Below, in pieces: positions 1 through 35,621 of a stretch of 35,621 nucleotides of DNA (its first letter is position 1; every line of letters begins with the position of its first letter). The stretch is from a virus, in the UHGV virus genome UHGV-0043842; one strand, written 5' to 3'. The notes under the pieces were generated by a model. It did no database searches and had not been told where the DNA came from. It worked only from the letters and a program-made list of their open reading frames with translations. The translations under genes and the position numbers were made by a program.

Positions 1-242
1 GCCGGCCCCAGGGCATCATCGACCGGCTCCAGATTGGTGGCGGCCAGCACCAGGGTCTCGTCTCCCAGGGCGGTCTTGACGGCCAGCGCCGGTCTGGAGC
101 CGGAGGGAGTCACCGGAGCGCCCTCATCCAGCAGCGTGACGCGCAGGGGAATCTTGTCGCCGCGCACCAGGGACAAGTCGGTGGCCGGGATGCCGCCGGG
201 GAACATGACGGCCATGGTGGCCAGGTCAATCAGCAGTTGCAT
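1..242 (-). CDS. Phage tail-region protein, 5' portion only. ATG is the reverse complement of 240..242 and the gene continues past the window's left edge.
   Basis: Open frame on the minus strand from 242 to 1, translating MQLLIDLATMAVMFPGG...LVLAATNLEPVDDALGP. Paralog of the partial gene at 35380..35621. The last 53 nt are nucleotide-identical to the reverse complement of 35569..35621. Confidence 0.45.
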   Translation of the reverse strand, partial: MQLLIDLATMAVMFPGGIPATDLSLVRGDKIPLRVTLLDEGAPVTPSGSRPALAVKTALGDETLVLAATNLEPVDDALGP

Positions 243-273
243 AACAGGTATCAGTGATTAGGCGTTAGAGGTG

Positions 274-309
274 TTTCCCCGCGGCGGTATGGACGCCGCC
301 GCGGGGAAA
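274..309 (-). other. Perfect 14-bp stem hairpin (tttccccgcggcgg / ccgccgcggggaaa) between the putative tail tube gene and the next gene. No U-tract follows it.
   Basis: Inverted repeat read directly from the sequence. It sits 8 nt downstream of the minus-strand stop at 317..319. It could be an RNA stability or attenuator element. Confidence 0.3.
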
Positions 310-316
310 GACGGGA

Positions 317-898
317 TTATGCTCCCGCGTAGTCCTCGTCAGGGGTCAGCTTGCAGAGCGGATTGTAGATGACGCTGAGCTCGAATTCTGCCAGGGACGG
401 ATCGGAGGCAGCCTTGGCCGGGTTGACCAGGCGCAGGCGGCCCTGCATGCAGGCGCTCATGATTCTGGCCCCGTCGCGGTAGGCGTCCGTCCACTCGGTA
501 TAGACATAGACGTCGATCTGCGGAGAGCCGGAGCCAAAGACCACCTGCTCCGTGCCCCAGTCCTGGGCAAGGCCAAAGGAGAGCTGCAGGAATTCCGGGG
601 TGATGTAGTTGCTGGCAAACAGGAATTTGCGCTTGGTGGTCAGCTGCAGCTCCTCGGTTTCGTAAGTGCCGCCGTCGTTGGCGCCCTCAATCTCGCCCGT
701 CTTGGTCTCAATCTGAGGATTGCTGGTGCGTATCCTGCCCATATAGAGCCAGGGGCCGGGGGCTTCCGCTGTCGGGGGGACGGGCAGCCAGTCCGCGGAC
801 ACGGTCTTGGACGGTTCGTCGCTGCCGATGACGGCTCCGAATTTGGCGATGCTGACCTTGGAGCCGATGATCAGGCCGGGGATAATAAATCTGGACAT
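317..898 (-). CDS. Putative major tail (tube) protein.
   Basis: 193-aa ORF. Clear paralog of 34726..35313 (shared motifs PGPWL..G.I.T, NPLCKL/NSPLA). Sits downstream of the head genes in the late operon. Confidence 0.35.
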   Translation of the reverse strand: MSRFIIPGLIIGSKVSIAKFGAVIGSDEPSKTVSADWLPVPPTAEAPGPWLYMGRIRTSNPQIETKTGEIEGANDGGTYETEELQLTTKRKFLFASNYITPEFLQLSFGLAQDWGTEQVVFGSGSPQIDVYVYTEWTDAYRDGARIMSACMQGRLRLVNPAKAASDPSLAEFELSVIYNPLCKLTPDEDYAGA

Positions 899-931
899 AT
901 CAGTGATTGGTGATGGGTTGATGGTTGGCAG

Positions 932-1144
932 TTACACGCCGACGATGACGGCCAGCCCGGCCGCCTCCAGAGACCTGGCCTGGGAGGCTGTCACTCTGGC
1001 GGTAGCGCCGGCACGCCCGTAAGCGCCGTTGATGAGCGTGCCCGTCTTGGTCACGCGGACTAACACCAGCGTCTCCTCCTGGGCGGGAGCCTGCGGAGTC
1101 GTGCCGGTCGTATCGGTATTGTTGGTTGTATTGGTCTTAGCCAT
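932..1144 (-). CDS. Small conserved phage protein (70 aa).
   Basis: Paralog of 34453..34668 (motif VKVRVT.TGT). Confidence 0.35.
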   Translation of the reverse strand: MAKTNTTNNTDTTGTTPQAPAQEETLVLVRVTKTGTLINGAYGRAGATARVTASQARSLEAAGLAVIVGV

Positions 1145-1176
1145 GGTTGTGTGTTGTAGGTGAGGATGGGAAAAAA

Positions 1177-1641
1177 TTAAAAGTTGACGGGAGCGTAGAG
1201 GATGACGGCCCGGCCCCGGAAGCCGGTCAGCCTGCTTTTAGTCATGTCGTAGTCCTCGACGGAGGCTACGGAGGGAGTGTCGTAGCAGACGCGGTCGACA
1301 ACCGGATCCCAGAGGCGGACGGCATGCAGAGTCCGCCCCACCATGCCGGACAGGCAACGGAGGGGAGGAACGCCGCCCGGCATTCCGGCATCCCGCGCAA
1401 AACAGCTCACGGCCAGCACGGCGTGCATGCGCACCATCGGAGCATTGACGCCCATCTCTAAGAGAGGGACGTAGCCTGCCGGAGTGACGGCGACGCTGCC
1501 GGGCCTGCCCATGGCCGCGCGGTTGATGGCGTCGATCTGCTCCTGCTCGTCCCACACGGTAGGGCACACCATCGGAGCCAGGACGTCGTCCTGCTGCAGG
1601 TGGGCGATGAGATGCTCGGCGAGTTTGTAGTCTTTATCCAT
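1177..1641 (-). CDS. Conserved phage virion/late protein (154 aa).
   Basis: Positional equivalent of 33957..34445 with weak similarity. Confidence 0.3.
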   Translation of the reverse strand: MDKDYKLAEHLIAHLQQDDVLAPMVCPTVWDEQEQIDAINRAAMGRPGSVAVTPAGYVPLLEMGVNAPMVRMHAVLAVSCFARDAGMPGGVPPLRCLSGMVGRTLHAVRLWDPVVDRVCYDTPSVASVEDYDMTKSRLTGFRGRAVILYAPVNF

Positions 1642-1659
1642 TGTATGGGGATTAGTGAG

Positions 1660-2298
1660 TTAAGAGTGGAGAGTGGAGTTGCCGTCGGCCTGGGCCAGGA
1701 GGCGGTTGAGCGCCAGCGTGGCGGCGCGCACGGCATACTCGCGCATCTGTTCGCGGGAGGGCATCACCTCCGGATGGGCCGGGATGGTGGCGGACTTGAC
1801 CAGGGCTCCCAGCGGGGTGACGTCCTGGTAATGGCCGTCCCTGTTGCGGCGCTTGCGCTGCCTGACGCGGGCCAGGATGGCGTTGCCGGTATCGACGTCG
1901 CCCAGGACCATGACCTCCTCCTCCGGGAGGTGGAGGCTGGCCAGGGAGCGCCGGCGCAGGGGTGAATCCTTAAACGGGATGAGCAGGCTCCTGATGGGAC
2001 GGCCGGTCACCTCCGACCTGCGGCCGGTGGGTCTGACGGTGCCTCCCAGCCATTGCAGGCGTACGCCTGTGTGGGTGATGTCGATGGTGGCCTTGTTGTC
2101 CCGGATGACGGGAGGGTTGACGCTCTGCTTGGCCTTGCCCCAGAATCCCTGGGACTGGGTGCGGTCGATCATGGCCTGCAAGCTGTCCCTCACCGCCTGG
2201 CGGGCGGCCCTGGCCACATCGGCCACCATCTCCGCGCGGATAGCGGGAGCCAGAGGGAGCCGTTGGAGGCCAATCACATCGACGTGTAACCTGATCAT
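1660..2298 (-). CDS. Phage virion morphogenesis-like protein (212 aa); the start was moved to the internal ATG.
   Basis: Homolog of 33331..33960 (THTGVRLQWLGGTVRPTGR vs THTGVRLHLLGGTVRATGR). The paralog starts MISLQV, which supports the MIRLHV start at 2298 rather than 2436. Confidence 0.4.
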   Translation of the reverse strand: MIRLHVDVIGLQRLPLAPAIRAEMVADVARAARQAVRDSLQAMIDRTQSQGFWGKAKQSVNPPVIRDNKATIDITHTGVRLQWLGGTVRPTGRRSEVTGRPIRSLLIPFKDSPLRRRSLASLHLPEEEVMVLGDVDTGNAILARVRQRKRRNRDGHYQDVTPLGALVKSATIPAHPEVMPSREQMREYAVRAATLALNRLLAQADGNSTLHS

Positions 2299-2336
2299 GA
2301 GTTGACAAGGGTTGAGGGTTGGGGCATAAGGGGGAC

Positions 2337-2585
2337 ATGAGCGGAATGGACGGCAAGATCGGCAAGCGCGAGATGGCGCTGTGGCTGCAGTACCTGCGCG
2401 CTCCCGGCCGATCTGGAGAGCAGGATTCTCCCGCACCGCGCAAGCTGCGATGGACAGAGCTGACGCAGTATCAGCGCCGGGCTGTTGAGCGCGGCGAGCA
2501 TGTGCCCTGCTGGTGCGGTACGGACCGGCCGGCTAATGGTCATGGCAACGGCCGCCAGAACCGGCGCAAGTGCCGCAAGGGCTGA
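2337..2585 (+). CDS. Orphan small ORF (82 aa from the ATG; the track starts it at TTG 2319). It converges on the toxin-like MuF gene and is a candidate immunity/accessory gene, or a spurious ORF.
   Basis: It fills a 294-bp gap that module B lacks. An AAGGGGGA Shine-Dalgarno-like sequence precedes the ATG. The composition is basic and GC-rich, so this could be chance. Confidence 0.25.
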   Translation: MSGMDGKIGKREMALWLQYLRAPGRSGEQDSPAPRKLRWTELTQYQRRAVERGEHVPCWCGTDRPANGHGNGRQNRRKCRKG

Positions 2586-2592
2586 TCTGTTA

Positions 2593-3987
2593 TTACTGCT
2601 CGCTGACATAGACGTAAGTGGGTGTGCCGTCCCTCCCCCGGACGATTTTGTTGACCTGGTGGCGCGCGGCCTGCAGGAACAAGACTTCCGACTCATTGGT
2701 GTGGGGATGTTTGTCGGTCTTGTTGACAAGACGCCTTTGCTCCTGGAGGGCGCGGACGACGGCGTCGATGCGGTGGCCGGACCGGTAGTCCTCGTTGACC
2801 AGGATGACCCGCTCGTTGCCCGGTTTGCCGCCACCCGCAAACCGCTGCGCCGTCTCCTCCGCGCGCGACCAGCTGTCCACCATCTTGGTGGGGAGCGCCT
2901 GGTAGCCGTCGCGCCTGATGCGGGACAGGAACCTGTCAACATCATTGGGGGGGATCGACATGCCGCGATAGAGCGTGCCGCTCTCCTTGACGTCGGTGGG
3001 CTGGATCCGGGTGACCGCGTTGTACAGGGCGTCCCACTCTTCCTGGGTGGCATAGCCCTGGACGCCTCGCTGCGCCCGGTCAAACTGGCGCTGATCCTCA
3101 ACGAATTTAACCATCGCTCTGGCCTGGGTGTCCGGGATGACGGGAGGACGCTGCCCGCAGATAACCTTGCCCGCCTCGCTCCAATGCACCGGACGGGTGC
3201 CGTTGGGGTCGGTGTAGTAGACGCGGTCTCCTTCCACCTCCACGCAGTCTTCCAGCGCATTGACAAATGCCTGCTGCAGGTCGCCGTCCATCCTGGCAAT
3301 GGACGCCTCCAGGCTGGCGTTGAGCGACTCGCCGTCAGCTCCCTCCAGCGTCGCCTCCGGAATCGTGAGGCCGTGGCGTCGAGCTTCCTCGTAGTCGACC
3401 GGATCCACCCCCATGCCGCTGTTAAAATCAAAGGGAGGGTAATCCAGATCAAACCGGCTGAGCTTGCGCCAGATGGGCGAGGTCAGCAGCGCGATGTGGG
3501 AGCCGTCGGTAGCCACGCCCTCGTAGTTGACGGCGGCCGCCGCCTCCCTCCAGCGGGCGTCCCAGTCCCTGGGCTGGCGGCTGTAGCGGATACGCACCAG
3601 GCGCTGGGCGGGATAGGCCAGCGACCCCAGCATGGAGTCCCGGTAGGCCCGTTCCCGGACCATGGCGACGTTGGTGTCCAGGATGAGACGCTGGCGGGCG
3701 TCGGAGTTGAGGTCCTGGATAGTACCCTCCGTGCCCGGCTCCGGCTGGTAGCCGGTGGCGCGCAGCATCGCGCGGACCTCGCGCAGAGCGTCCGCCTCGG
3801 ACAGGTTGCCGTCCACAATCCCCTGGCAGCGGTCGCGGAATCCCTGCACGCGGGCATAGCATCCCTCCCTGGCCGTCCAATAGGAGCGCTCCCGGATGTC
3901 CGGATCCACGCCGTCCCAGTCCGCCGACGACATGCCGGCAGCAGGAACCGTGATTTTGGCTCGCATGTAATCCGAGGGAGAGGGCAT
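2593..3987 (-). CDS. MuF-like (Mu gp30 / SPP1 gp7 family) head morphogenesis protein with a ~210-aa C-terminal extension resembling an ADP-ribosyltransferase toxin domain.
   Basis: The N-terminal ~250 aa are homologous to 32570..33334 (DYPPFDFNSGMGV vs GYPPFDFNSGMGV). The C-terminal region is unique to this copy and contains YRG, SWS and ESEVLF motifs in that order. Confidence 0.45.
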   Translation of the reverse strand: MPSPSDYMRAKITVPAAGMSSADWDGVDPDIRERSYWTAREGCYARVQGFRDRCQGIVDGNLSEADALREVRAMLRATGYQPEPGTEGTIQDLNSDARQRLILDTNVAMVRERAYRDSMLGSLAYPAQRLVRIRYSRQPRDWDARWREAAAAVNYEGVATDGSHIALLTSPIWRKLSRFDLDYPPFDFNSGMGVDPVDYEEARRHGLTIPEATLEGADGESLNASLEASIARMDGDLQQAFVNALEDCVEVEGDRVYYTDPNGTRPVHWSEAGKVICGQRPPVIPDTQARAMVKFVEDQRQFDRAQRGVQGYATQEEWDALYNAVTRIQPTDVKESGTLYRGMSIPPNDVDRFLSRIRRDGYQALPTKMVDSWSRAEETAQRFAGGGKPGNERVILVNEDYRSGHRIDAVVRALQEQRRLVNKTDKHPHTNESEVLFLQAARHQVNKIVRGRDGTPTYVYVSEQ

Positions 3988-4014
3988 TGCTGAGTGGGAA
4001 AGGCTGAGTTACTG

Positions 4015-4482
4015 TTACCTCCTCCGCCGGGGGGAAGGAAATAATCCGGGCGCTCCGGAACCGTAGGCGGGACGCGGTCCCTGGACATAAGGACGCTTGC
4101 CGGGAGGCACGGGCATGCGGCCGTCCGGACCGATCACCCGGTGGGTGCCGGCCCGGACCGCCTCCAGACGCTCGCGGGCGGAAGTCGCGGCCTTGTCGCG
4201 GGACTCACTGACTGCCACGGCAAACCGCTTGAGCAGCCGCCAGGCAATCATGTCCAGAGCCTCCGGCCTGAGGGTGCGGGGGATGGTGTCCCTCGTGAGG
4301 TCCATCACATTGGCGGGGTTGGCAGCGATAGCCTCGCGCACGGAGGCCGTCACGTCCTGGATGATGCCGTCAACAACAGAACCGTCCGTATCGGCGGCCG
4401 TGATGGCATCCAGCTCGGCTTGGTCGATAACCTCCAGGAGCATATCCGCCGTCAAGGTGATCCAGTGATTCATGGCAGGCAA
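4015..4482 (-). CDS. DUF1320 / Mu gp36-like protein.
   Basis: Homolog of 32093..32521. Size and position match Mu-like head modules. Confidence 0.35.
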   Translation of the reverse strand: MPAMNHWITLTADMLLEVIDQAELDAITAADTDGSVVDGIIQDVTASVREAIAANPANVMDLTRDTIPRTLRPEALDMIAWRLLKRFAVAVSESRDKAATSARERLEAVRAGTHRVIGPDGRMPVPPGKRPYVQGPRPAYGSGAPGLFPSPRRRR

Positions 4483-4492
4483 CGGTTAATAG

Positions 4493-5122
4493 TCAGGAGA
4501 CGGATTGCTCGTCCGGGACCTCCGGGGCGGCATCGTCCAGGTGCAGGATCATCTCGACGATGGCGTCGCACATGCCGATGGCCTCGGCCGCCTTGCGCAG
4601 GTCGAGCATCTCGTAGGGTTTGGTCCGGGCCAGGATGCCGCTGATCACGCCTCCGGCGATGATGGATGTGATGTGCTGTCTGGGCGACAGGCCGAGCCGC
4701 TTGGCGGTCAGGATGGCGAGGGGAGGCTGCTCTCCGGAGACGCTGTCGTCATGGACGTTGGAGGTCAGACCATGCAGGTCATCGTACTCGTGACTGGTCA
4801 TGTTGGGGCCGGGATCGTCCCCTGCCTCCCCGGAGTCGCTGTCGTCATGGATGTTGGAGGTCAGACCATGCAGGTCATCGTACTCGTGACTGGTCATGTT
4901 GGGGCTGGGATCGTCTCCTGCCTCCCCGGAGTCGCTGTCGCCCATGGGGCAGTCAGTGGCGGGCTCTACGGCTGGTTGATTGGCGGGATTGGCTGCAGGC
5001 TCCGATGCGGATGCCTCGGCAGCGGTGTCCTCCACGGTCGGCGTGGCCTTGTCCTGATCAGGAGTGGTGGTGTCCATCTCCTGGGCAGGTTTGTTGGTCT
5101 TGGTTGATTTCTTGGCTGTCAT
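4493..5122 (-). CDS. Highly acidic protein with 32-aa tandem repeats (209 aa). It is present only in module A.
   Basis: The ORF contains two near-identical 96-bp units encoding DSDSGEAGDDP.PNMTSHEYDDLHGLTSNIHD. Module B has no counterpart between its capsid and gp36-like genes. Confidence 0.45.
   Translation of the reverse strand: MTAKKSTKTNKPAQEMDTTTPDQDKATPTVEDTAAEASASEPAANPANQPAVEPATDCPMGDSDSGEAGDDPSPNMTSHEYDDLHGLTSNIHDDSDSGEAGDDPGPNMTSHEYDDLHGLTSNVHDDSVSGEQPPLAILTAKRLGLSPRQHITSIIAGGVISGILARTKPYEMLDLRKAAEAIGMCDAIVEMILHLDDAAPEVPDEQSVS
4736..4949. repeat. 96-bp tandem direct repeat, about 2.2 copies (units 4736..4831 and 4832..4927, ~96% identical, plus a partial third).
   Basis: Read directly from the sequence. 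The two full units differ at 4 of 96 positions. Confidence 0.9.
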
Positions 5123-5216
5123 CTTGATGAAAAATTGAGTGTTAAGAGTGGAGAGTTGAGAGGGAGCATGGAGGCGGGAGCATCACAACTCCCGGCTCTC
5201 CACACTCCATCCTGCA

Positions 5217-6185
5217 TCAGGCGATCTGCATGCGCATCATGGCCGAGGGAGCGGCGAACACGACCTTGTGATGGCCGCGCACGCGCAGCCATTCCGTGGA
5301 AATGTCTTCATCTCGATAGGTTTCCACCGTGCTGTACATGTCGTCGCCGGCGAGGTTGAGCGTCTTGAGCGCGGATATGTCGTCCAGGGACGGATTGTCG
5401 TCGGCGTAAAACAGATAGATGTTGCTGCCCACGATATTGACGTTGTCCACTTCCGCGCCTCCCGTGCCTCCGGGATTGTAGGAGGCAATGGTGCGCATGA
5501 CCCTGACCGGCGGGATGTCGTCGCCCTGCAGGCCGATGAGCTCCAGCAGCGTCTCCGGCGTGAGGACCTTGCGGCCCATCTCGCCCATCATGGTCTGGAC
5601 TTCCGTGTTGGCCTGGATGTCCGCCCAGACGTCGCGCGTGGTCAGGATGCGGTTGGGATAGACGCCGTTGTTGACGGCGAATTTGTTGATGAGGCTGGTC
5701 AGGATGCTGACCACGGGCTTGGTGCGGTCGCTCCATTTGTTGGCCTCCGTGATGCCGTCCACCGACGTGATGCCGGGGATGACGGAGTTGGCGTAGTCAA
5801 ACACCTCCTTATTGTGGGAGATGAGCATGCGGCGGGCCAGCGCGCGGGTTTTGGCCTGGCGCAGGCTGGTGCGGTAAACTTCCGCGTCAACCGCTCCGAG
5901 CAGCTCGCGGTCGTCAATGCCGATCTTGAGGGCGTGTTCCTCCAGCATCACCGGGACGTCCTCGCCGCGGATGTCGATAGTGCGGGGGGAGTCGTACATG
6001 GGCCTGCGGGTGTCCGAGGCGGCAAAAGCGTCCTGGCGCAGATAGCGCTTGTAGGTGGTCAGCAGGCCGGGGGCCTTGACGCCGGGAGCCAGGAAGCGTG
6101 CCGGGTCGTGGGTCTGGGTGCCGTACCAGCCGATGATGTAGTTGGTCAGCGGCAGGTTGACGGCGTAGGTTGTGGATGTACTCAT
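5217..6185 (-). CDS. Major capsid protein (Mu gpT-like).
   Basis: 322-aa ORF homologous to 31105..32016. It follows the protease/scaffold and decoration-like genes. Confidence 0.45.
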   Translation of the reverse strand: MSTSTTYAVNLPLTNYIIGWYGTQTHDPARFLAPGVKAPGLLTTYKRYLRQDAFAASDTRRPMYDSPRTIDIRGEDVPVMLEEHALKIGIDDRELLGAVDAEVYRTSLRQAKTRALARRMLISHNKEVFDYANSVIPGITSVDGITEANKWSDRTKPVVSILTSLINKFAVNNGVYPNRILTTRDVWADIQANTEVQTMMGEMGRKVLTPETLLELIGLQGDDIPPVRVMRTIASYNPGGTGGAEVDNVNIVGSNIYLFYADDNPSLDDISALKTLNLAGDDMYSTVETYRDEDISTEWLRVRGHHKVVFAAPSAMMRMQIA

Positions 6186-6218
6186 GCTATGTAGTCGTTA
6201 AGAGGTAAGAGTTAATGG

Positions 6219-6665: not shown

Positions 6666-6695
6666 TTTAATTAGAGTTAGGTGTTGAGATTGGAG

Positions 6696-9673: not shown

Positions 9674-9676
9674 GAG

Positions 9677-11131: not shown

Positions 11132-11152
11132 GGGGAGTGGGTGAGTTACTGT

Positions 11153-25255: not shown

Positions 25256-25268
25256 CCCCCCTACACCC

Positions 25269-27455: not shown

Positions 27456-27459
27456 CACG

Positions 27460-29520
27460 ATGAACATTTTACCGCAATTTGTGAACAGGATGATTGGCAG
27501 GCCAGGGAATTTCCGGACTGGCATGATCAGGCTGATCGGCTTTTTGTCCCGACGCTCTCAAAAGGAAGGCCGGAACCCGCTGCCATTCCTGACGCCGCAG
27601 GAAGCCCGCGCCCTCTATGAATTGTACCGGAAAGGCCAGTATGCCGACGTGATGCTGTGCTGGGCCGCCCTGGAAGAAACGGACGACATGCTGGGCACGG
27701 TCCTGGACCGCCGCGCCTCCGCCCTGGCGGAAATGACTGACGACGTGAAGGTGGATGCCAAAGCCATCGGCAACAACCCGGACTTGCAAACGCTGGCCGA
27801 CGAGCAGCAGCAATGCCTGGCGGAATATTACGGCAAGATCGACAACTTGAGGGATGCGGTGCGGTTCATGGGATCGGCTACCTTCCGCGGGTACGCGCAC
27901 CTGGAACCCGTGGCCGGAGGCGGCAGAATCAGGATGGAACCCGTGGACCAGTGGCTGATGGCCCGGCCTGTCAAGGGCGGGGCCTGGTATTACAACGAAT
28001 CCGCCGACAGGTCATGCGCCAAGCTGGAAGCCGTGGATGAAAGCCGCCTGATCATCCGTGAATGCCTCCGGCCCGTGGACCTGCCCGCCATGTTCGCCAT
28101 CTGCGCCAAGGCCCATGCCCTGGACGGGTGGGACGGATTCATTGACGTGTTCGGCAACCCGGCCATCTTCTTCAAATACCCGCCAAACACTTCTGACGAA
28201 CAGGCACGGGAATATGACCGCATCGCCGAAGAGATGATCGGGGACGGGCGCGGCGGCTACCCGGACGGAGGGGACATCAAGACTGTGGAAACGACGGCCC
28301 GCGGAGGGGACACCTTCAAACAGCGCTGCGAGTGGTGCGACAAGCAGATTGTGCGCCGCGGCACGGGCGGCGAGCTGACCGTGCTGGCGGAATCCGGCAG
28401 CGGGACGCTGGCGGGCAACGCCCACCAGGAAACATTCCGCATGTTGGCGGCGGGCGAAGGCGCGGAAATCTCCGAAAGCTTCAACCGCCAAATGAGCCGC
28501 CGCCTGCTGGACCGCCATTTCCCGGGAAGGCCGCATCTGGCCTACTGGACGCTGGAATACGAAGAAGCCGAAGACGTAGGCAAGCAGGTGGACAACATCA
28601 CGAAATTGGCCGCCGCGGGATATATTGCCGACGAGGAAGAAGTAAGCGAGGCGTCCGGCTATACGGTCACGTACCGGGCGCCGCAGCCGTCCCAGGAACA
28701 ACCCTCCTTCCCCCTGCTGGCCAACAGCCGCGGAAACTGGCAACACATCCCCGCACAGATTGAGCAGACCAGGAACAACGCCCCCCTGACGGCCCAGGAA
28801 CTTGCCCTGCTGGAAAAGCTGCTCAACGCACAGCCGAACCCGGCCATGATCCGGAATGATGCCCGGAAGCTGGAAACGGCCATGAAACGCGCCGCAGGGC
28901 TGGAAGTGGGCAATGACCCGGAAAAGCAGGAAAGCACCCCGGCAGCCCCCCGGCAAAACGCAAATACGCCCCAAAACGAAGACCAGGGAAACCTGCTGGC
29001 CAACTACGGCACCAGCGAAGGGGCCAAGAAGGGCTGGGACAAGCGGGGGCGCGGGCAGCATGAGGCCATCGGCCAAACCGGAACGGCCAAAAGCCTGGGA
29101 CTGGAAAAATTGTCCGCCCTGACCCCCGACCCGGCCAGCAGCCACAGCCACCCGGGAAGAGCGCGGAAAGCCCTGACGCGTGGATTTATGGCCCGGTCCA
29201 TCGACGGGCAGGACGTGCATTTCAGCAAGGGCGTCCTGGATCACTGGGAAAGCACCCAGCCCCCCAAAACGCCCGAGGAACAGAACCGGAGATTGCGGCG
29301 TTTATCTGAAGCTGTCCGGGCCGTGAAAAACCCGCACGAAGTGTGGGAATCCCACAACGGCCAGAAGACCTACCTGCGCGTGTACAAGGATGACGCCGGG
29401 AAATTTGCCATGAGCGGATTTATCACGGGCAAGGATGGCCAGGTGAGAAGCTTTTTCCACAGCCGCCGACTGAATGGAGCCGAAAAGATGAGAAAGGGAA
29501 CCCTGAAATACAAGAGATAA
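27460..29520 (+). CDS. Portal protein (Mu gp29 / DUF935-like) with a unique basic C-terminal extension.
   Basis: ATG at 27460 preceded by AGGAG; the track's 27259 start is rejected. 686 aa versus 579 aa in module A. Confidence 0.55.
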   Translation: MNILPQFVNRMIGRPGNFRTGMIRLIGFLSRRSQKEGRNPLPFLTPQEARALYELYRKGQYADVMLCWAALEETDDMLGTVLDRRASALAEMTDDVKVDAKAIGNNPDLQTLADEQQQCLAEYYGKIDNLRDAVRFMGSATFRGYAHLEPVAGGGRIRMEPVDQWLMARPVKGGAWYYNESADRSCAKLEAVDESRLIIRECLRPVDLPAMFAICAKAHALDGWDGFIDVFGNPAIFFKYPPNTSDEQAREYDRIAEEMIGDGRGGYPDGGDIKTVETTARGGDTFKQRCEWCDKQIVRRGTGGELTVLAESGSGTLAGNAHQETFRMLAAGEGAEISESFNRQMSRRLLDRHFPGRPHLAYWTLEYEEAEDVGKQVDNITKLAAAGYIADEEEVSEASGYTVTYRAPQPSQEQPSFPLLANSRGNWQHIPAQIEQTRNNAPLTAQELALLEKLLNAQPNPAMIRNDARKLETAMKRAAGLEVGNDPEKQESTPAAPRQNANTPQNEDQGNLLANYGTSEGAKKGWDKRGRGQHEAIGQTGTAKSLGLEKLSALTPDPASSHSHPGRARKALTRGFMARSIDGQDVHFSKGVLDHWESTQPPKTPEEQNRRLRRLSEAVRAVKNPHEVWESHNGQKTYLRVYKDDAGKFAMSGFITGKDGQVRSFFHSRRLNGAEKMRKGTLKYKR

Positions 29521-29628
29521 AAGAAGTACGGACGGGAGGGCCATCTCCCCGCACGGGCTAACGCGGCCTTAACGGATGGCCCCCAGGCCGCGCATCACCG
29601 TAACAACACCATAACCAACGCACGCAGA

Positions 29629-30630
29629 ATGTCAACAAAGATGAAGACCATTACCTTAGAGGATTTGCAGCCCTGGGAAAACCCGGGGGACGGCTGGTAC
29701 AACATCGAACGCTGGGGGGAACATCCCCAGCAGACAGCGGACGGGAAAAAATATATCCAGGTCATCGACGATGAGGCCGTGCGGGCCATCGTGGAAGCAG
29801 GCGTCCCGGAAGAAGGGCTGCTGACCGACGTGGAACATGTGTCCGTTGCCGTCACCGGGCCGCGGGATAGCCGGGCTTACGGCTGGGTGCGCGAGCTTGC
29901 CGCCCTGCCAACGGCGGAAGGGCTGCAACTGTGCGCCCGTATCGAATGGACGCCGCTGGGCCTCCCCCTGGTCCGGGACCGCATCTACAAACATTTTTCG
30001 ACCGTGTACAGCGTGGAGCTGTGCGCGGACCTGGGCGGCGGACGCCTCCGCCCCCTGCAACTCGTCGGGCTGGCCCTAACCAACCAGCCCAACAACCCCG
30101 GCCAGCGCCCGATCACCAACAGTCAGGCCGCGCCGCTCAACGACAACACAAACCAACAAGACAACAACATGGAAGAATTGAAAAAAATCGCCGCCAAGCT
30201 GGGACTGCCGGAAGACGCCGGGCTGGACCAGATACTGGCAACACTCGACGCCCTGATGGCCGCCGAACAGGAAGCCGCGGAAGCGGAAACGCTGCTCAAC
30301 AGCGAAGAACTGAAGGACCTGCCCGATGAGGCACGGAAAGACCTGAAGGACGAACTGCTGACCAATCGCGACCTGGGTATTAAGATGATCAATCTGCTGA
30401 TCAACCGCAAGGGCGGCGGTGCACCTCCCGCCACTGCTCCGAGATATGCCCGCCCCGGATTCCGTCCGGCGACGAAGGCTACCAAGGGAACCGTGAGCAT
30501 GGATGCGGAACGCGGCAGGTTGCTGACCAACACGGCTAAAGAAATCCAGGCACAGGAACGCAACGCCGGGCGCACCTGCTCGTTTTGGAAGGCGAAAAAC
30601 ATGGCTAAATCCCGCCTGAGGCAGAAGTAA
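29629..30630 (+). CDS. Mu gpI-like prohead protease/scaffold.
   Basis: Paralog of 6696..7937. Confidence 0.45.
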   Translation: MSTKMKTITLEDLQPWENPGDGWYNIERWGEHPQQTADGKKYIQVIDDEAVRAIVEAGVPEEGLLTDVEHVSVAVTGPRDSRAYGWVRELAALPTAEGLQLCARIEWTPLGLPLVRDRIYKHFSTVYSVELCADLGGGRLRPLQLVGLALTNQPNNPGQRPITNSQAAPLNDNTNQQDNNMEELKKIAAKLGLPEDAGLDQILATLDALMAAEQEAAEAETLLNSEELKDLPDEARKDLKDELLTNRDLGIKMINLLINRKGGGAPPATAPRYARPGFRPATKATKGTVSMDAERGRLLTNTAKEIQAQERNAGRTCSFWKAKNMAKSRLRQK

Positions 30631-30666
30631 GCCGCACCAGCTATTAACTTTTAACCAGTAAACAAC

Positions 30667-31062
30667 ATGGCAATTATCCATCAACAAGCCGTCATGAGGG
30701 CGGAAAGCGGCGTGGACCTCCGCAAATGCGAAGGCTGCTTCGTGAAGAAAGACACATCGGGCAAGTTGGTCTTGTGCGATAAATCCGACATCCCCCTGGG
30801 CGTGGTCCACGTCGGCGGAGACGAAGGAGAAGACACGGATTACCTCCTGCCCGCCCATCAGGGGATCGTGGGGGTGCGGTTGAGCGAATCCCCCGGCAGC
30901 GTGGAAGAGGGAACCAGGCTTGTCCTGGACGACGGAGGCACCGCCAAGGCCGGAGATACCGGAACCCTGGTGGCCGTGGCCTGCGAGCCGGGAACCGGGG
31001 GGCAGCTCCTGGAATCCTACTTGACCCTCCCGACCGTGCTGGCGTCTTCTGCCGGGGACTGA
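30667..31062 (+). CDS. Head decoration-like protein.
   Basis: Paralog of 6219..6665. Confidence 0.35.
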   Translation: MAIIHQQAVMRAESGVDLRKCEGCFVKKDTSGKLVLCDKSDIPLGVVHVGGDEGEDTDYLLPAHQGIVGVRLSESPGSVEEGTRLVLDDGGTAKAGDTGTLVAVACEPGTGGQLLESYLTLPTVLASSAGD

Positions 31063-31104
31063 CGCACTCAACAACCAACAATAAGCAATAGATACTAACA
31101 TTAT

Positions 31105-32016
31105 ATGTTTCAGAACGCTGCAAGCTACAACGGTTATTTGACCGAGCTGTGCCAGGCCGCTTATGCGGACGAGGCGGACAGCATCAGCCGCAAATTGTTC
31201 CCAACCGTGGGGGTGAAAACCGCCGTGGGGAGTTACAAGAAGCGGGACATCGACAACGCGTTCCGCGTTTATAAAACGGCCCTGTCCAGGGGGAATTCTC
31301 CTACGCGGATAGACACCAACGCCACGGACGATTTTTACAACTGCAAGCCCCACGCATTGGAGGTCGGCAGTTGGAAATTCGACATGGAACAGGACGGCGG
31401 AGGGGATGATGAACGGGAAAGCAACCTTCAGGATTTGATCAGCTCCCAGCTGGTCACGAGGGAAGTTGAAGCCGTCACCATCTGGAAAGCCGGGGTGCCA
31501 GTCACGGCTGGAAGCGGCAACTGGACGAGTACCGCCGGGCAGAAAGCCAACATCATCCAGGAACTGGATAACCTGGCCCTGACGATCCAGGCGGCCATCG
31601 GGCGCAAGCCGACGCATTTGATCCTGGGGCTGAAAGCCTGGGTGGTCATGAAGAATCATCCGTTCTTCCTTAATCGCCTTCAGGGGTTGGAACTGACTGC
31701 CAGCCTGGACACCCTGAAGAACATGCTGGTGTTCCCGGACATTGACGTGTCCCTGGCATCCATGCCCTACCAGCCCGCAGCACGCGGGAAGTCCGGCAAG
31801 ATGCAGGGCATTATGGGATCGGACATTTTCATGTTCTACTCCCAGGACGCGCCGACGCGCAACGACATGTCAGCAGCCAAGGATTTCACGCTGGAACCTT
31901 CCGGCCCGGAAATCCTGTCCGAAGAACGGACGCTGGAAGTGGTGGACATGATGTACTGGTCCACTCACCGGAAAGTGACCAATCCGGCAGCCGCCGCACG
32001 CATCGAAGTATCGTAA
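31105..32016 (+). CDS. Major capsid protein.
   Basis: Paralog of 5217..6185. A hairpin lies downstream at ~32040..32068. Confidence 0.45.
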   Translation: MFQNAASYNGYLTELCQAAYADEADSISRKLFPTVGVKTAVGSYKKRDIDNAFRVYKTALSRGNSPTRIDTNATDDFYNCKPHALEVGSWKFDMEQDGGGDDERESNLQDLISSQLVTREVEAVTIWKAGVPVTAGSGNWTSTAGQKANIIQELDNLALTIQAAIGRKPTHLILGLKAWVVMKNHPFFLNRLQGLELTASLDTLKNMLVFPDIDVSLASMPYQPAARGKSGKMQGIMGSDIFMFYSQDAPTRNDMSAAKDFTLEPSGPEILSEERTLEVVDMMYWSTHRKVTNPAAAARIEVS

Positions 32017-32092
32017 CCAGGAATGACCGATTGACGAGGACTGTTCCGGGGGCGCAACGCCGCCCCCGGAACTTACAACCAGAAGAAAAACC

Positions 32093-32521
32093 ATGTGGAC
32101 GCCCCTAACTGAAACCATCCTGAACCAGGTACTGAACGCCGGGGAACTGGCCAGCGTAACGCGCGACCGCGCCCAGGTGCAGCCCGATCCCATTCCCGGC
32201 ATCCTGGCCGAGACGGCGGCCACCATCCGCAGCCGCATTGCCTCCGGAGGCCGCACCAGGTTACAGGGAAGCCCTGACTGCATCCCCGCGGAACTGATGG
32301 CGGAAGCCGGGGCCATTGTCCGTTACCGCGTCCTGGTCCGGTTTGCCCTGGCCATGACGGACGAGCGGAAAGCGGAGTGGCAGCACGCCAATGACGTGCT
32401 GAAGGAATTATCCTCCGGCAGCTACGTGATCACCGATGACGCCAGCGACAAGACCCCCAGCCCGCACTATTCCGGAAGGCCGATCCGGTGGGGCATGAGC
32501 CGCCACGGCGGGGTGATGTAA
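32093..32521 (+). CDS. DUF1320 / Mu gp36-like protein.
   Basis: Paralog of 4015..4482. Confidence 0.35.
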   Translation: MWTPLTETILNQVLNAGELASVTRDRAQVQPDPIPGILAETAATIRSRIASGGRTRLQGSPDCIPAELMAEAGAIVRYRVLVRFALAMTDERKAEWQHANDVLKELSSGSYVITDDASDKTPSPHYSGRPIRWGMSRHGGVM

Positions 32522-32569
32522 GGCCCGCGCATGCGGGCAGTGAACAGTTAAAAGCGAATAGTTAATAGG

Positions 32570-33334
32570 ATGCCAAGCGCCGAAGAAATACTGATGGGAA
32601 AGCGGCTGATGCCGACCAACTTGAATTCCGCCCAGCTGGAACAAATGGGCCGGGAATTCACGCAGCGTGCTGTTTTTTCGGCTGGCTGCAACCATCTTCA
32701 GACGGTTCAGGCAATCCGGGACGGATCCCGGAAAATTTTGAACGGCGAATGGCTGAATGCTTCCGCCCGCGAGTTTTTGCAGGCGGTACTTAAATTTTAC
32801 AATTATGAGGCCCCGGAGGATGCTGAGGGGACGATCCGGGACATGACGACACCCGGACGCCAGAATTTGATTTTTGACCAGACAGTGGCCCAGGCGCGGA
32901 ACTATGCCTGGAAAGAAAACCTGCTGGCCGACGACAGGCCCCACGCCTGGCAGCTGGTCCGGGTGGGAACCAGGAAAGAACCGCGGGACTGGGACACGCG
33001 CTGGAAAGATGCGTATGCGCAGCTTTCCCCCGCGGAACGGCTGGGCGTGGATGCCGAAGGAAAGCGCGCCCTGGTGAATAGCCGGATTTGGCAGCTGCTG
33101 TCCCGGTGGGGGACGGGCTACCCGCCTTTTGACTTTAATAGCGGGATGGGTGTGAAGTCCGTATCGGCGGACGGGTTGCAGGATGCGGCGGCAGCCGGGC
33201 AGGAAGATTTCAGCAGCGCCGAAGCGAGCATGAAAGGAGTGGATCAGGATTTGCGCGACTGGATCAGCCGCAACCTGGATGTGCAAGTGAGCATCCGCGG
33301 GGACAAGGCAATCATGGAAGGAGGCCGGGCATGA
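32570..33334 (+). CDS. MuF-like head morphogenesis protein, short form (254 aa, no toxin-like extension).
   Basis: Homologous to the N-terminal half of 2593..3987. Its stop overlaps the next start, so there is no inserted gap. Confidence 0.45.
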   Translation: MPSAEEILMGKRLMPTNLNSAQLEQMGREFTQRAVFSAGCNHLQTVQAIRDGSRKILNGEWLNASAREFLQAVLKFYNYEAPEDAEGTIRDMTTPGRQNLIFDQTVAQARNYAWKENLLADDRPHAWQLVRVGTRKEPRDWDTRWKDAYAQLSPAERLGVDAEGKRALVNSRIWQLLSRWGTGYPPFDFNSGMGVKSVSADGLQDAAAAGQEDFSSAEASMKGVDQDLRDWISRNLDVQVSIRGDKAIMEGGRA

Positions 33335-33960
33335 TTAGTCTGCAAGTGAACCTGGATATGTCCGTTGCCCTGGCCAGGATGGTCACGCCGGAGGATTTGC
33401 AGGCCATGACCCGGCACGCCGGGGACGATTTGCGCGACCTGCTGAAGAATCATTTTATCGACCGATCCCAGCAGACCGGATCGCGGAACTACTGGGCCGG
33501 GGCGGCGGAAGCCACGGAAAGCCACATGGAGGGCCGCACGGCCCGCGTGACGGTAAGCCATACGGGGGTGCGCCTGCACCTGCTGGGCGGCACGGTCCGG
33601 GCGACTGGCCGCATCTCCCCCGTGACGGGCCGCCCCACCAAAAGCCTGCTTGTCCCAGGGCCGGATTCCCCTTTGCGCAAGCGGCGGATCACGCTGGCCG
33701 AGGCCGGAATTCCCCAGGAGGAAATCATGGTCTTGTACAACGTCAAAAGCCGCATGCCCTACCTGGCCCGCGTCCAGGAACGCAAGCGCATGTACAAGGG
33801 CTGGAAGCAGAAAATAACGCCGCTGGGGCTGCTCCTTAAATCCGTGACGCACGACCCCGACCGCACCGTTCTGCCGTCGGATCAGGAACTGACCGACACC
33901 GTGAAATCCTCCGCCGTGGACACCCTGGCAACTAGAATTTCCAACCGAACGAAACGATGA
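33331..33960 (+). CDS. Phage virion morphogenesis-like protein.
   Basis: Paralog of 1660..2298. Confidence 0.4.
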   Translation: MISLQVNLDMSVALARMVTPEDLQAMTRHAGDDLRDLLKNHFIDRSQQTGSRNYWAGAAEATESHMEGRTARVTVSHTGVRLHLLGGTVRATGRISPVTGRPTKSLLVPGPDSPLRKRRITLAEAGIPQEEIMVLYNVKSRMPYLARVQERKRMYKGWKQKITPLGLLLKSVTHDPDRTVLPSDQELTDTVKSSAVDTLATRISNRTKR

Positions 33961-34445
33961 ACAACGAACTACCGGACGGCCCCGAATACGTGTTTGCCCA
34001 GGCGGTGATCGACCGCCTGGCCGGAAAAAAAGAACTGGCCAATTACGTGATGCCCGCCCCGTTTGACGCCAGCGACCAAGTGAACAACCTTGCCCTGGCC
34101 GTGGCGCAGTATGATGCGGCCATCGCGGTCATGCCCCAGGCACCCCAGCCGCCGCCCTGGAAGGGTGTGGACATGCCGGACCCCGGCGTGATTGTCGCCA
34201 CGGCAGCCATCCTGGTCATGACGACCGGGCAAGTGGGGGCTGACCCCACGATCCGCCGCTTGTCCGCCCTGACCGCCGCCGTGCTGCGGCGGCTGCGCAA
34301 ATGGTCCCCGCACAACGACGAGCTGGCCGGGACAGCCCCCTGGGTGGCGGAAATTACAGAACTAAGCACGGAACAAGTGCCGGACCTGAAGAACGTGGAC
34401 GGCAGAGTGATTTTCCTCTCGATCCGAGAAACCCTGAACCCATAG
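33957..34445 (+). CDS. Conserved phage late protein (162 aa).
   Basis: Positional equivalent of 1177..1641. Confidence 0.3.
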   Translation: MNNELPDGPEYVFAQAVIDRLAGKKELANYVMPAPFDASDQVNNLALAVAQYDAAIAVMPQAPQPPPWKGVDMPDPGVIVATAAILVMTTGQVGADPTIRRLSALTAAVLRRLRKWSPHNDELAGTAPWVAEITELSTEQVPDLKNVDGRVIFLSIRETLNP

Positions 34446-34452
34446 CAACAAC

Positions 34453-34668
34453 ATGGCAAAGACAGAAAAAGAACAGACGGCCCCGGCATCCGCCGCGGGG
34501 GAAGCAGGCGTCAGCAGCCAGGCCAAGCCGCAACTGGTGAAAGTGCGCGTGACCAGGACGGGCACCAACATCAGCGGCATGACCTACCTGGCCGGAGTGG
34601 TGGTGAACGTCACGCCCGACCAGGCTGCGGCGCTCGAACAGGCAAAAGCCGGCTGCCGGGTATTTTAA
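34453..34668 (+). CDS. Small conserved phage protein (71 aa).
   Basis: Paralog of 932..1144. Confidence 0.35.
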   Translation: MAKTEKEQTAPASAAGEAGVSSQAKPQLVKVRVTRTGTNISGMTYLAGVVVNVTPDQAAALEQAKAGCRVF

Positions 34669-34725
34669 CGGACCGGAGCCGGAACGACGAACCATTAACA
34701 ATTAACTATTAACCAAACCAAGCAC

Positions 34726-35313
34726 ATGGCATACGAAAAAAGATTTGTCGATAATTTGATCGGAGGCATGATCATCCGCATTGCAAAATTCGGGGAAACC
34801 GTCACCGCAGGAAACACGGTGGGAGAAGGGGCCAAGCCCGACGCTCCCACCCCGGAAAAGCCCGGACCGTGGCTGACCCTGGGTAAGATCAAGACGGCTA
34901 CCAGCGAACGCCAGAAGAAGACGGCGACGGTGGAAGGCGTGAACGACGCGGGATTTTATGAAATGCGCGATTTGTCGATCGCCCAGCAGTCCAAGCTGAA
35001 GTTCACGACGCAGGAGGTGACGCCTGAAGCGATCCAGCTGGCGTTCGGCGTGGCGGGCTGCCTGGAAGATGACCAGGAAGCCGCGCCGTTTTCATCCTCC
35101 GGCAACATCCGTTGCTGGGTGTATGGAGAACTGCGCAACTCCGGCAATAACGCCGAAAAGCTGGCCCATTTCTGCGTGATGGGGGATTTATCCCTCACCA
35201 ACAGCCCGAATTTCGCGTCCGATCCGGTGACGTGCGAGTTTGAGCTATCCATCAAGAATTCCCCCCTGGCTACGTTCACGAGCCTGGCGCTGGCCAAGCT
35301 GGCGGCGGATTAA
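34726..35313 (+). CDS. Putative major tail (tube) protein.
   Basis: Paralog of 317..898. Confidence 0.35.
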   Translation: MAYEKRFVDNLIGGMIIRIAKFGETVTAGNTVGEGAKPDAPTPEKPGPWLTLGKIKTATSERQKKTATVEGVNDAGFYEMRDLSIAQQSKLKFTTQEVTPEAIQLAFGVAGCLEDDQEAAPFSSSGNIRCWVYGELRNSGNNAEKLAHFCVMGDLSLTNSPNFASDPVTCEFELSIKNSPLATFTSLALAKLAAD

Positions 35314-35379
35314 CCCTGCGCCCATCCAGGAGCCGTCCGGCTGGGGCGGCTCCGCTTTCCCCCTTCCATCTTTCCAATC

Positions 35380-35621
35380 ATGATTATATACATAGATGCT
35401 AACACGCTGGCCCTGACGACGGCGGGCCAGGTGCCGCTGACTGACATGGCCCTGGTGCGGGGCGACAAGATGCCGCTGCGCATCGTCCTGACGGACGGCC
35501 CCGGCAACCCCTCGAATTCTGACGAGGTGCCCGTGCTGGCCGTGAAAAAATCCCTGGGGGACGATTCCCTGGTGCTGGCCGCCACCAATCTGGAGCCGGT
35601 CGATGATGCCCTGGGGCCGGC
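35380..35621 (+). CDS. Phage tail-region protein, 5' portion; the gene continues past the right edge.
   Basis: Paralog of 1..242, also 242 nt within the window. Its final 53 nt are identical to the reverse complement of 1..53. Confidence 0.45.
   Translation, partial: MIIYIDANTLALTTAGQVPLTDMALVRGDKMPLRIVLTDGPGNPSNSDEVPVLAVKKSLGDDSLVLAATNLEPVDDALGP

Follow-up and report, generated by a model that had tools for sequence, protein, structure and literature searches.

The window analyzed here, the whole 35,621-nt stretch of virus genome UHGV-0043842, is well supported as a single short-read contig composed of segments from two very common Mu-like prophage lineages of Akkermansia muciniphila, referred to here as lineage A (1 to ~22,050) and lineage B (~22,016 to 35,621). 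Overall the picture is mostly one of ordinary phage mosaicism combined with an assembly edge effect. Apart from the few differences listed below, each part of the window matches clonal representatives of its lineage at every base.

Two homologous late-gene modules from distinct lineages

The window contains two collinear late-gene modules in mutually inverted orientation, one on the minus strand (3–13862) and one on the plus strand (23032–35619). Blastp comparison yielded 16 collinear homologous gene pairs with 23–67% amino acid identity, and the large terminase forms a 17th, very distant pair (23% identity, E = 2e-7), which bears out the homology and inversion of the modules stated in the original prediction. 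According to PHROG and Pfam both modules encode an HTH_17 regulator, an M15 endolysin, a small and a large terminase, a Mu-type portal, a Mu-like protease and a major head protein. Among the Mu-type genes Pfam recognized Portal_Mu, Mu-like_Pro_N, Phage_Mu_Gp36 (weak) and Phage_Mu_Gam, and Phage_Mu_Gp27 in a sister lineage. The late regulators had been labeled Mor/C; the genes at the Mor position match HTH_17 and not the Pfam Mor family. As predicted, gene annotation recovered only one set of transposase, MuB and repressor genes in the window. The suggestion that the modules are two copies within one element, one of them a remnant, did not hold up, since they represent distinct lineages, each known by itself from many genomes as a complete transposable prophage. 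Head genes are present in duplicate in the window and tail genes are absent.

A megablast search of the phage collection gave no match of deposited phages to either half of the window, and an exact 55-mer scan of the species-representative genomes gave 0 matches. When these genomes were scanned with the transposase protein, only mis-binned MAG contigs and a 39% match in Akkermansia glycaniphila were returned. The literature searched for described Akkermansia Mu-like phages held nothing specific.

Lineage A

Lineage A is complete in itself and includes the central transposase and repressor genes, which are not part of module B. Late genes, a Mor-like gene, a methylase and the repressor lie on one strand, and the transposase/MuB/Gam operon lies on the opposite strand and points toward the nearby phage end. 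At the left edge the first 80 codons of a tail-fibre-like gene (3–242, minus strand; 696–739 aa in relatives) run off the window, with 60% amino acid identity to 35380–35619. The late module proper (317–13862, minus strand) was annotated by blastp, PHROG and Pfam and comprises the HTH_17 regulator (13608–13862), a 217-aa gene (12882–13535), the M15 endolysin (12250–12858), a TerS-like gene (11153–11650), TerL (9677–11131), the Mu portal (7934–9673), a protease/scaffold gene (6696–7937), the major head gene (5217–6185) and a gp36-like gene (4015–4482). Further head-tail genes are present in this module besides the named ones. The lysogeny-side genes (13951–15605, minus strand) are an N6/N4 DNA methylase (13951–14697), an AT-rich 116-aa gene (14787–15137) and an HTH repressor (15270–15605).

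The early or transposition operon (15712–22030, plus strand) is read away from the late genes. It includes the transposase (17129–19159; PHROG 310, E = 6.6e-12), for which Pfam gave HTH domains only and no rve match, a MuB-like ATPase (19184–20224; AAA_22/TniB) and Mu Gam (21509–22030; Pfam PF07352). Small genes accompany these three. By its strand the transposase/repressor set would suggest module B; the early arm of lineage A is inverted.

Positions 1–10898 are identical to two related loci (L102, L104) except at position 6173, and 7129–22053 are identical to three others (L070, L087, L098) except at 21682 and 21697. The order Mor-like gene, methylase, repressor, early operon is shared by 21 IMG/VR contigs and every A-side look-up; these 21 contigs are collinear with the window from 22733 down to 4400, and none reaches the HTH_17 regulator of module B. 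Exact A-side window proteins were found in 121 long contigs, all with the canonical A layout and with different host flanks. The same layout is present in the complete genomes CP072037.1, CP029700.1, CP117954.1 and CP025824.1, and in CP117954.1 both ends of one lineage A copy were found, 32.9 kb apart.

Lineage B

The lineage B part is the late half of a phage with ordinary Mu gene order. A 56-aa ORF (22023–22193) and a 209-aa gene (22183–22812), both on the plus strand and of the B2 sublineage type, are the last early genes; the exact B2-type proteins were found only in canonical B-type prophages. The late module (23032–35619, plus strand; blastp, PHROG and Pfam) comprises the HTH_17 regulator (23032–23283), a 223-aa gene (23357–24028), the M15 endolysin (24061–24666), a TerS-like gene (25269–25841), TerL in two ORFs (25825–26757 and 26754–27455), the Mu portal with PBECR2 (27523–29520), the Mu-like protease (29629–30630), the major head gene (31105–32016) and the first 80 codons of a 739-aa tail-fibre-like gene (35380–35619; PHROG 2636, tail fibre). 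This module, too, holds head-tail genes besides those named.

Positions 22016–32812 are identical to one related locus (L054) with 0 mismatches, and 24732–35621 differ from L073/L074 (CP114598.1) only by a 6-nt indel at 30277. Thirteen IMG/VR contigs are collinear with the window from 21478 to 34000 and have an early region of their own, with a transposase only 38% identical to that of the window. All 71 contigs with exact B-side window proteins are canonical B prophages. Neither half of the window is decayed; each is intact and matches active-looking clones.

The inverted repeat at the window edges

The exact terminal inverted repeat measures 55 nt, positions 1–55 being the reverse complement of 35567–35621; its presence at both edges had been predicted correctly, its length as 53. 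The only other exact inverted repeat of at least 25 nt in the window is a palindrome at 16541–16566. Beyond the 55 nt the ungapped identity of the two ends falls to 59% and then to background. The left arm (1–55) is the first 55 nt of a shared segment, R2, in the 5' part of the lineage A tail-fibre-like gene, and A-type contigs (L001, L003, L004) run straight on past position 1. At the right arm (35567–35621) the B2 sublineage of lineage B changes to A-type sequence: in ordinary B-type contigs 11 of the last 36 window nucleotides are different, and the B2 prophages L073–L076 carry the arm and share a 283-nt exact run with A-type sequence. Extension in clonal relatives of both halves gave 283 nt of exact identity, a stretch inside the ~739-aa tail-fibre-like gene, followed by ~0.9 kb at ~89%. 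This confirmed that the identical repeat continues past the window and that the edges lie in homologous tail-region genes running off it (60% amino acid identity, 3–242 versus 35380–35619).

The biological reading of these edges has to be revised. Recent gene conversion in this genome had been proposed; the 55-mer and the 283-nt stretch are a fixed mosaic boundary of B2, found in at least five independent contigs including the complete genome CP114598.1. The position of the repeat exactly at both edges is an assembly effect with k = 55. SPAdes uses default k values of 21/33/55(/77), and its contigs overlap neighboring graph edges by k. Repeat lengths of 55 in the window and 77 in a related contig are typical assembler k-mer sizes: the B-type contig 3300029855_000257 stops exactly 77 nt into R2, an A-type contig from the same sample passes through, and other contigs break off inside the same tail gene.

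An exact inverted repeat at both ends of a contig of 35.6 kb, a length within the phage range, could also suggest a complete linear phage genome with its true ends. However, both arms lie inside an ORF that nine other contigs extend ~2 kb past the window, in relatives another six tail genes follow, with the real phage ends, ~9 kb beyond the window edge, and the window doubles its head genes while lacking those of the tail; this reading has practically no probability left. An invertible segment of the Mu G/Gin type was considered and rejected, the repeat arms being parts of the fibre genes of two separate phages. No recombinase or resolvase Pfam was found in the gene tables of either lineage (the scan covered part of the small window ORFs).

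Phage ends, target sites and co-resident prophages

Relatives of both lineages have 5'-TG...CA-3' ends with repeated subterminal motifs, which are putative transposase-binding sites. The ends read TGAGGAATGACAGGATAGTTGATAT... and ...GGCGCGTTACA for lineage A and TGAAAAGGGACAGTATAGTTGAAATAGGG... and ...GCGCCGTTACA for lineage B. The early-side end of lineage A (...CCTCA) adjoins many host genes, with more than 15 different flanks, and the lineage B left end has 10. In B-type relatives this left end (TGAAAAGGGACAG...) lies beside differing host genes with a 4-bp target duplication. Two B-type prophages with both ends had perfect 4-bp duplications (CAGA and ACGG), and 5 bp can be read only by assigning the conserved T of TG to the target; in the one A-type prophage with both ends located (CP117954.1) there was no target duplication. 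Inverted contig matches beyond the early end of lineage A had raised the possibility of an invertible segment; they are explained by the phage end and the adjoining host DNA, part of it CRISPR repeats.

Two Mu-like prophages each were found in CP117954.1 and in ERZ28751584 contig_12177. In CP117954.1 the flank at the tail end of one prophage (TTGG) recurs at the early end of the second, which is inverted, and each carries the usual end subtype of the other. From these swapped flanks and end subtypes, a prophage-mediated inversion or arm exchange between the two co-resident prophages seems to have taken place.

Origin of the A/B junction

The passage from A to B lies in a second shared segment, R1 (21478–22199, plus strand), which comprises Gam and the 56-aa ORF, is ~95–100% identical between lineage A and B2, and is where the lineages overlap. 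A switch at the gene boundary at ~22200 was dropped when B2-type prophages showed 21478–22199 to be shared. The last A allele is at 22015 and the first B2 allele at 22054, leaving a 38-nt crossover interval (22016–22053, plus strand). Relative to the closest parents the alleles in R1 alternate A, B2 (21682, 21697), A, B2. The 16 window 55-mers starting at 22000–22015 are absent from all 104 related loci; at k = 33 every 33-mer across the junction is parental. The last exact run of at least 54 nt common to both parental clones ends at ~21930, and two A-type contigs (L012, L020) end at the right border of R1.

That recombination between relatives is involved is supported. The original prediction had pictured one phage transposed into a resident relative, and a Mu-like phage that had inserted into or next to such a relative, or a decayed remnant, with gene conversion later homogenizing the tail genes, would agree with the single transposase/repressor set between two late modules and with the many insertion sites of these phages. 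Both lineages have well-defined ends, yet the window contains no phage-end motif of either. The junction falls in homologous sequence of Gam, a gene at the same place in both lineages, neither half is decayed, and the tail stretch in common is lineage-wide and not local conversion. We therefore regard this scenario as very improbable.

We prefer the explanation that the hybrid arose during assembly. At the well-supported core of this explanation, the window is one de Bruijn-graph contig with a final k of 55 from the two prophage lineages. The two short stretches common to A and B are R1 (Gam, 0.7 kb) and R2 (tail-fibre-like gene, 283 nt exact), and a path from late A through early A and R1 to late B meets R2 in opposite orientations at its two ends because the early arm of lineage A is inverted. 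The assembler halted at R2, and the 55-nt k-mer overlap remained as an apparent inverted terminal repeat. With less certainty, the passage through R1 would be a product of the assembler as well, by collapsed strain bubbles or a mis-phased repeat, perhaps helped by a real small gene-conversion tract. A and B would then be separate co-resident or co-occurring prophages and the 35.6-kb hybrid a composite rather than a physical molecule, which on the sequences at hand we consider an even bet. The repeat length of exactly 55, the contig stop at 77 nt, the contigs ending at the R1 border and the parental 33-mers support it, as does the alternating allele pattern, which has the look of a bubble-collapsed consensus of a mixture. 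However, since the shared runs of at least 54 nt end at ~21930, a plain path switch at k = 55 between the parental clones cannot yield the window haplotype; either reads came from a real recombinant junction or the link stems from a lower-k stage.

Homologous recombination at 22016–22053 between an A-type and a B2-type prophage residing in one Akkermansia chromosome is an alternative that we rate somewhat short of even; with direct R1 copies it would cause a deletion, with inverted copies an inversion. It would fuse A late genes and the A transposition arm to B late genes, and the two R2 copies, ~35.5 kb from each other, would make up a genuine 283-bp inverted repeat with the potential to invert the segment, with the contig end at R2 still due to the assembler only. 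The junction-specific 55-mers are not derivable from parental clones, 38 nt within 95%-identical DNA are adequate for a RecA-type crossover, and several Mu-like prophages can share a genome, where the apparent inversion in CP117954.1 makes recombination within the family less far-fetched. Moreover, the contig is unbroken over the 0.7-kb R1 yet halted at the shorter R2, which is easier to explain if R1 was single-copy in the sample and favors a real hybrid. On the other side, no hybrid appeared in ~190 contig look-ups including roughly ten complete or near-complete genomes, although the exact-protein look-ups (42 to 5429 blocks per protein) merged similar places and could not have exposed a hidden hybrid, and the count is biased against a real one because its inverted-repeat flanks would keep it out of long short-read contigs. 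The junction 78-mer (21996–22073) had 0 matches in IMG/VR and the 104-mer (21969–22072) 0 in 241 million JGI metagenome contigs, both weak negatives, as the patterns are haplotype-specific. The allele alternation in R1 would need patchy repair or an unseen A haplotype, and a product without the early-side (transposase-proximal) phage end of either parent would be a phage dead end. A chromosomal locus in which a single transposition arm and both complete late modules lie between the copies of a 283-bp inverted repeat able to flip 35.5 kb may exist, at a little under an even chance.

Relation to known systems and significance

None of these findings represents a new kind of system. As in Mu and saltoviruses, the transposase is directly followed by a MuB-like AAA+ ATPase in the same orientation, and Gam, the Mu-type portal, the Mu-like protease and the gp27-like and gp36-like genes are shared with Mu. 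The TG...CA ends, subterminal repeats and many insertion sites of the relatives are Mu-like as well, and the gene order of lineage B is that of Mu. A short target duplication may also be shared; it is 5 bp in Mu and was 4 bp here in the two measurable cases. The phages further differ from Mu in their host (Akkermansia, Verrucomicrobiota), in a size of only ~31–33 kb, in a late regulator with HTH_17 and MerR/excisionase-like PHROGs instead of the Mor/C family, and in that no sheath, tube or baseplate signatures and no G segment or Gin were detected. The inverted transposition/regulation arm of lineage A with its divergent layout resembles the KS10/BcepMu type; in Burkholderia phage KS10 the first ~17 kb “appears to be inverted” relative to Mu (PMC2628397). 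Unlike in KS10, both layouts coexist in Akkermansia in sister lineages that still share near-identical segments, and the window has no detectable nucleotide similarity to deposited phages.

The edges resemble k-mer-length terminal repeats that lead to false ITR or DTR calls, in that the length is a standard k, and the repeat begins a sequence that occurs at two places in the graph and is traversed by other contigs. In contrast to plain k-mer artefacts, the underlying repeat is a real mosaic boundary of two phage lineages and not an error. The junction also resembles prophage-mediated rearrangement, with a crossover in a short identical stretch of a homologous gene, two otherwise intact prophages and a likely example in CP117954.1, whereas the window hybrid on one molecule is only putative. 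Checks that call a viral genome complete from its ITR would accept this 35.6-kb contig, whose terminal repeat is perfect, yet the sequence is incomplete and drawn from more than one phage. Warning signs are a repeat of k-mer length and a head module that occurs twice.

A. muciniphila, a species of therapeutic interest, carries Mu-like transposable prophages of at least two very common families, and a genome often has several. Between families A and B the whole early arm is inverted, yet near-identical segments (Gam, tail fibre) have been exchanged. These shared segments break short-read assemblies and may also mediate real chromosomal rearrangements. If the hybrid locus is real, it would, together with the arm swap in CP117954.1, make recombination between prophages a recurrent driver of chromosome rearrangement in A. 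muciniphila and a route by which inverted-arm and Mu-order architectures interconvert.

Gene content of the two late modules

An all-against-all blastp of the window ORFs yielded 16 collinear homologous gene pairs between the minus strand (3–13862, module A) and the plus strand (23032–35619, module B), with amino acid identities of 23–67%. The large terminases (TerL) form a 17th, very distant pair with 23% identity. According to PHROG and Pfam matches both modules encode an HTH_17 regulator, an M15 endolysin, a TerS-like protein, TerL, a Mu-type portal, a Mu-like protease and a major head protein. The original prediction of two homologous late modules in inverted orientation was thus a correct description. 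The G+C content is ~64% in module A vs ~60% in module B. Between the modules a DNA methylase, an AT-rich gene and an HTH repressor are encoded on the minus strand, followed by an early operon with transposase, MuB-like ATPase and Gam on the plus strand.

The AT-rich gene between repressor and methylase (14787–15137, minus strand, 116 aa) has no family match and looks like a moron: the surrounding 1-kb windows have a G+C content of 0.56 and 0.46 vs ~0.62–0.65 elsewhere in the phage. Sister lineages carry a GYF_2-domain gene in place of the neighboring methylase cassette. Within the early gene at 16105–17124 we noticed a perfect 28-nt palindrome (TCAAATTCGACACATGTGTCGAATTTGA, 16540–16567), located in the sole patch of the early region with nucleotide similarity between the two lineages (~69%). 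This palindrome may serve as an operator or as an enhancer of transposition. Directly after each Mor-like gene there are four 9-bp-periodic repeats, at 13566–13604 on the minus strand in A (units GCCAAATGC AACAAATGC GCCAAACGC GCCAAACGC) and at 23284–23324 on the plus strand in B (units CACATTTGC CACAAACGC CACATTTGC CACAAATGC). They are followed in both lineages by GGGCTARRGTGCCC and the ATG of the next gene, and are candidate activator sites of a late promoter. In one related locus (L055) one 18-nt unit is absent.

In lineage B TerL consists of two overlapping plus-strand ORFs, 25825–26757 (310 aa, ATPase, Terminase_6N) and 26754–27455 (233 aa), and the same arrangement is found in every B-type contig; the lineage A enzyme is a single ORF of 484 aa, only 23% identical to it. 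Either two separate proteins or a programmed frameshift could account for the split. Finally, a 209-aa head-region gene (4493–5122, minus strand) contains a 96-bp in-frame tandem repeat of 2.2 copies with 95% identity (4730–4940), and BLAST matches of related contigs L003–L009 are shifted or broken at this position.

The modules belong to two phage lineages

Probing IMG/VR with the methylase recovered 21 contigs collinear with the window from 22733 down to 4400. They share the early operon on the plus strand together with repressor, methylase and Mor-like gene, as well as the late genes on the minus strand, and none of the 21 reaches the gene in the Mor position of module B. A module-B protein probe recovered 13 other contigs, collinear with the window from ~21478 to 34000, which possess their own early region in the ordinary Mu order, with a transposase 38% and a MuB-like protein 47% identical to those of the window. 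Exact-protein look-ups in a larger collection, whose counts do not all represent distinct contigs, gave the same picture. The A-side proteins (91-aa protein, transposase, Gam, MuB-like protein and 193-aa tail protein) always occur in one layout: after Gam follow a gene of 50–59 aa, a gene of 213 or 214 aa, two or three small genes and finally the phage end ...CCTGTCAYWCCTCA, which adjoins many different host genes; several complete genomes of 2.8–3.0 Mb are among the carriers. The B-side proteins are always found in canonical B prophages, with a left end TGAAAAGGGACAGTATAGTTGAAATAG... just beyond the methylase and beside varied host genes. The modules therefore belong to two different phage lineages and not to one. 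From the collinear contigs and the look-ups it also follows that the single transposase and repressor set is that of the minus-strand module A. The early arm of lineage A is inverted relative to Mu, and the early arm of lineage B is missing from the window.

Among the carriers, GCA_004015265.1 is the genome of Akkermansia muciniphila EB-AMDK-8, and a transposase relative with 39% identity is present in A. glycaniphila. Three near-identical lineage A fragments (L077, L078, L080) were assigned to MAGs with the labels Collinsella sp. and Oscillospiraceae; as the host is Akkermansia, this almost certainly reflects contamination during binning. Several lineage A prophages (L068, L058, L084, L097) directly adjoin a CRISPR array with the repeat GTTTCAATTCACGCACCCGTGTGGGTGCGAC, located beyond the early-side end and upstream of a TPP-enzyme gene, and one B prophage (L053) adjoins type I-C cas genes.

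Junction between the lineages

Members of a sublineage of B, termed B2, among them the contigs L053–L057 and the complete genome CP114598.1, match the window at 21478–32800 with 99.5–99.7% identity, while A-type contigs match it to about 22195. The matches overlap, so that 21478–22199, comprising Gam and a 56-aa ORF, is a segment near-identical in both lineages (R1). The right border of R1 coincides exactly with the ends of two A-type contigs. At base level three A-type loci (L070, L087, L098) are identical to the window at 7129–22053 except for positions 21682 and 21697, and two further ones (L102, L104) at 1–10898 except for position 6173. On the other side the B2 locus L054 is identical at 22016–32812, all 30 mismatches being located within 21498–22015, and L073 and L074 (B2) are identical at 24732–35621 apart from a 6-nt indel. 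This confines the crossover to 22016–22053 (38 nt). These comparisons show a clean splice of two clones, with a region of ERZ28618823 scaffold_9 as the parental reference for A and CP114598.1 at 2,007,267–2,038,200 as that for B2. Phage-end motifs are absent from the entire window, and the junction is of the homologous-recombination type and not a transposition junction.

Inverted repeat at the window edges

An exact inverted repeat had been predicted at both edges and is present, with a length of 55 nt (1–55 and 35567–35621) and not 53 nt. Apart from the palindrome (16541–16566) the window contains no other exact inverted repeat of at least 25 nt. The repeat is located within a tail-fibre-like gene of 696–739 aa (PHROG 2636); ~9 kb further outward lie another five or six tail genes as well as the actual ends of the phage. 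In IMG/VR the exact 55-mer occurs in four contigs: three A-type contigs, which continue straight past window position 1, and one B-type contig, which shares its sample of origin with one of the A-type carriers and ends exactly 22 nt past the 55-mer (77 shared nt). The agreement of ordinary B-type contigs with the right end of the window ceases ~19 nt into the 55-mer, and 11 of the following 36 positions differ. The full 55-mer is present in the B2 prophages (long contigs and CP114598.1). Counted from its first base, B2 and A-type sequences are identical over 283 nt and ~89% identical over the next 0.9 kb before the tails diverge. A longer identical repeat outside the window was thus rightly anticipated. 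The proposed recent local gene conversion did not hold, as the repeat marks a mosaic boundary found throughout the lineage, in the B2 contigs including CP114598.1.

Both 55 and 77 are standard k values of SPAdes, whose contigs overlap neighboring graph edges by k. An assembler working at k = 55, a value inferred from the repeat length, would halt at a sequence occurring twice in its graph, which explains the location of the repeat exactly at both edges. Because the early arm of lineage A is inverted, this shared tail-fibre stretch (R2) is met in opposite orientations at the two ends of a path through late A, early A, R1 and late B. The finding of two modules with an inverted terminal repeat is accounted for by phage mosaicism together with an edge effect of the assembly.

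Physical hybrid or assembly composite

We give about an even chance to the linkage of A and B being an assembly composite, which could possibly include a small stretch of genuine gene conversion within R1. That both halves are physically joined in a real hybrid is a serious possibility, if one falling short of an even chance. Speaking against a real hybrid, none was encountered in ~190 contig look-ups; a 78-mer across the junction is absent from IMG/VR and a 104-mer from JGI metagenome contigs. However, the sampled long contigs are biased against a structure flanked by inverted repeats. Relative to the closest parents the R1 alleles alternate A, B2, A, B2, as is typical of collapsed strain bubbles, and all junction k-mers at k = 33 occur in the parents, which also speaks for a composite. 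At k = 55 the evidence favors a real hybrid: the 16 window 55-mers starting at 22000–22015 occur in 0 of 104 related loci. The final exact run of at least 54 nt common to both parental clones stops near 21930, so that a plain path switch at this k cannot yield A alleles at 21931–22015 and B2 from 22054. Also in favor of a hybrid, the contig passes the 0.7-kb R1 yet halts at the shorter R2, and a real arm exchange between two inverted prophages seems to have taken place in CP117954.1.

This genome contains two oppositely oriented lineage-A-type prophages, at ~2,651,961–2,684,875 and ~414,476 (loci L103, L069/L096 and L064/L086). The former has no target duplication, with TTGG at its tail flank and CCGG at its early flank; TTGG is the early flank of the latter. 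Each carries the end subtype normally tied to the other's late module. The arms seem to have been swapped between the prophages, a pattern that suggests a prophage-mediated chromosomal inversion.

Relation to known phages

Three other readings, namely a genome with true ITR termini, one phage nested in another by transposition and an invertible segment of the Gin type, were also considered, and each failed its defining test. Both lineages, as measured in their relatives, resemble Mu in most respects: they combine a transposase and a MuB-like ATPase with Gam and head genes of the Mu type, have TG...CA ends and are inserted at many sites. In contrast to Mu the regulator is HTH_17 and not Mor/C. 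The target duplication of Mu is 5 bp; here it is apparently 4 bp in the two measurable cases, both from lineage B, in which perfect duplications flank TG...CA ends (CAGA for L055+L073, ERZ28568571 scaffold_5; ACGG for L056+L074, CP114598.1). The left ends all retain the T of TG (10 of 10), which makes a 5-bp reading unlikely. The inverted-arm layout of lineage A is of the type of Burkholderia phage KS10, whose early arm has already been described as inverted relative to Mu (PMC2628397). Deposited phages gave no nucleotide match to the window, and literature searches retrieved no description of these Akkermansia phages. Both lineages probably represent undescribed phages of a known kind.
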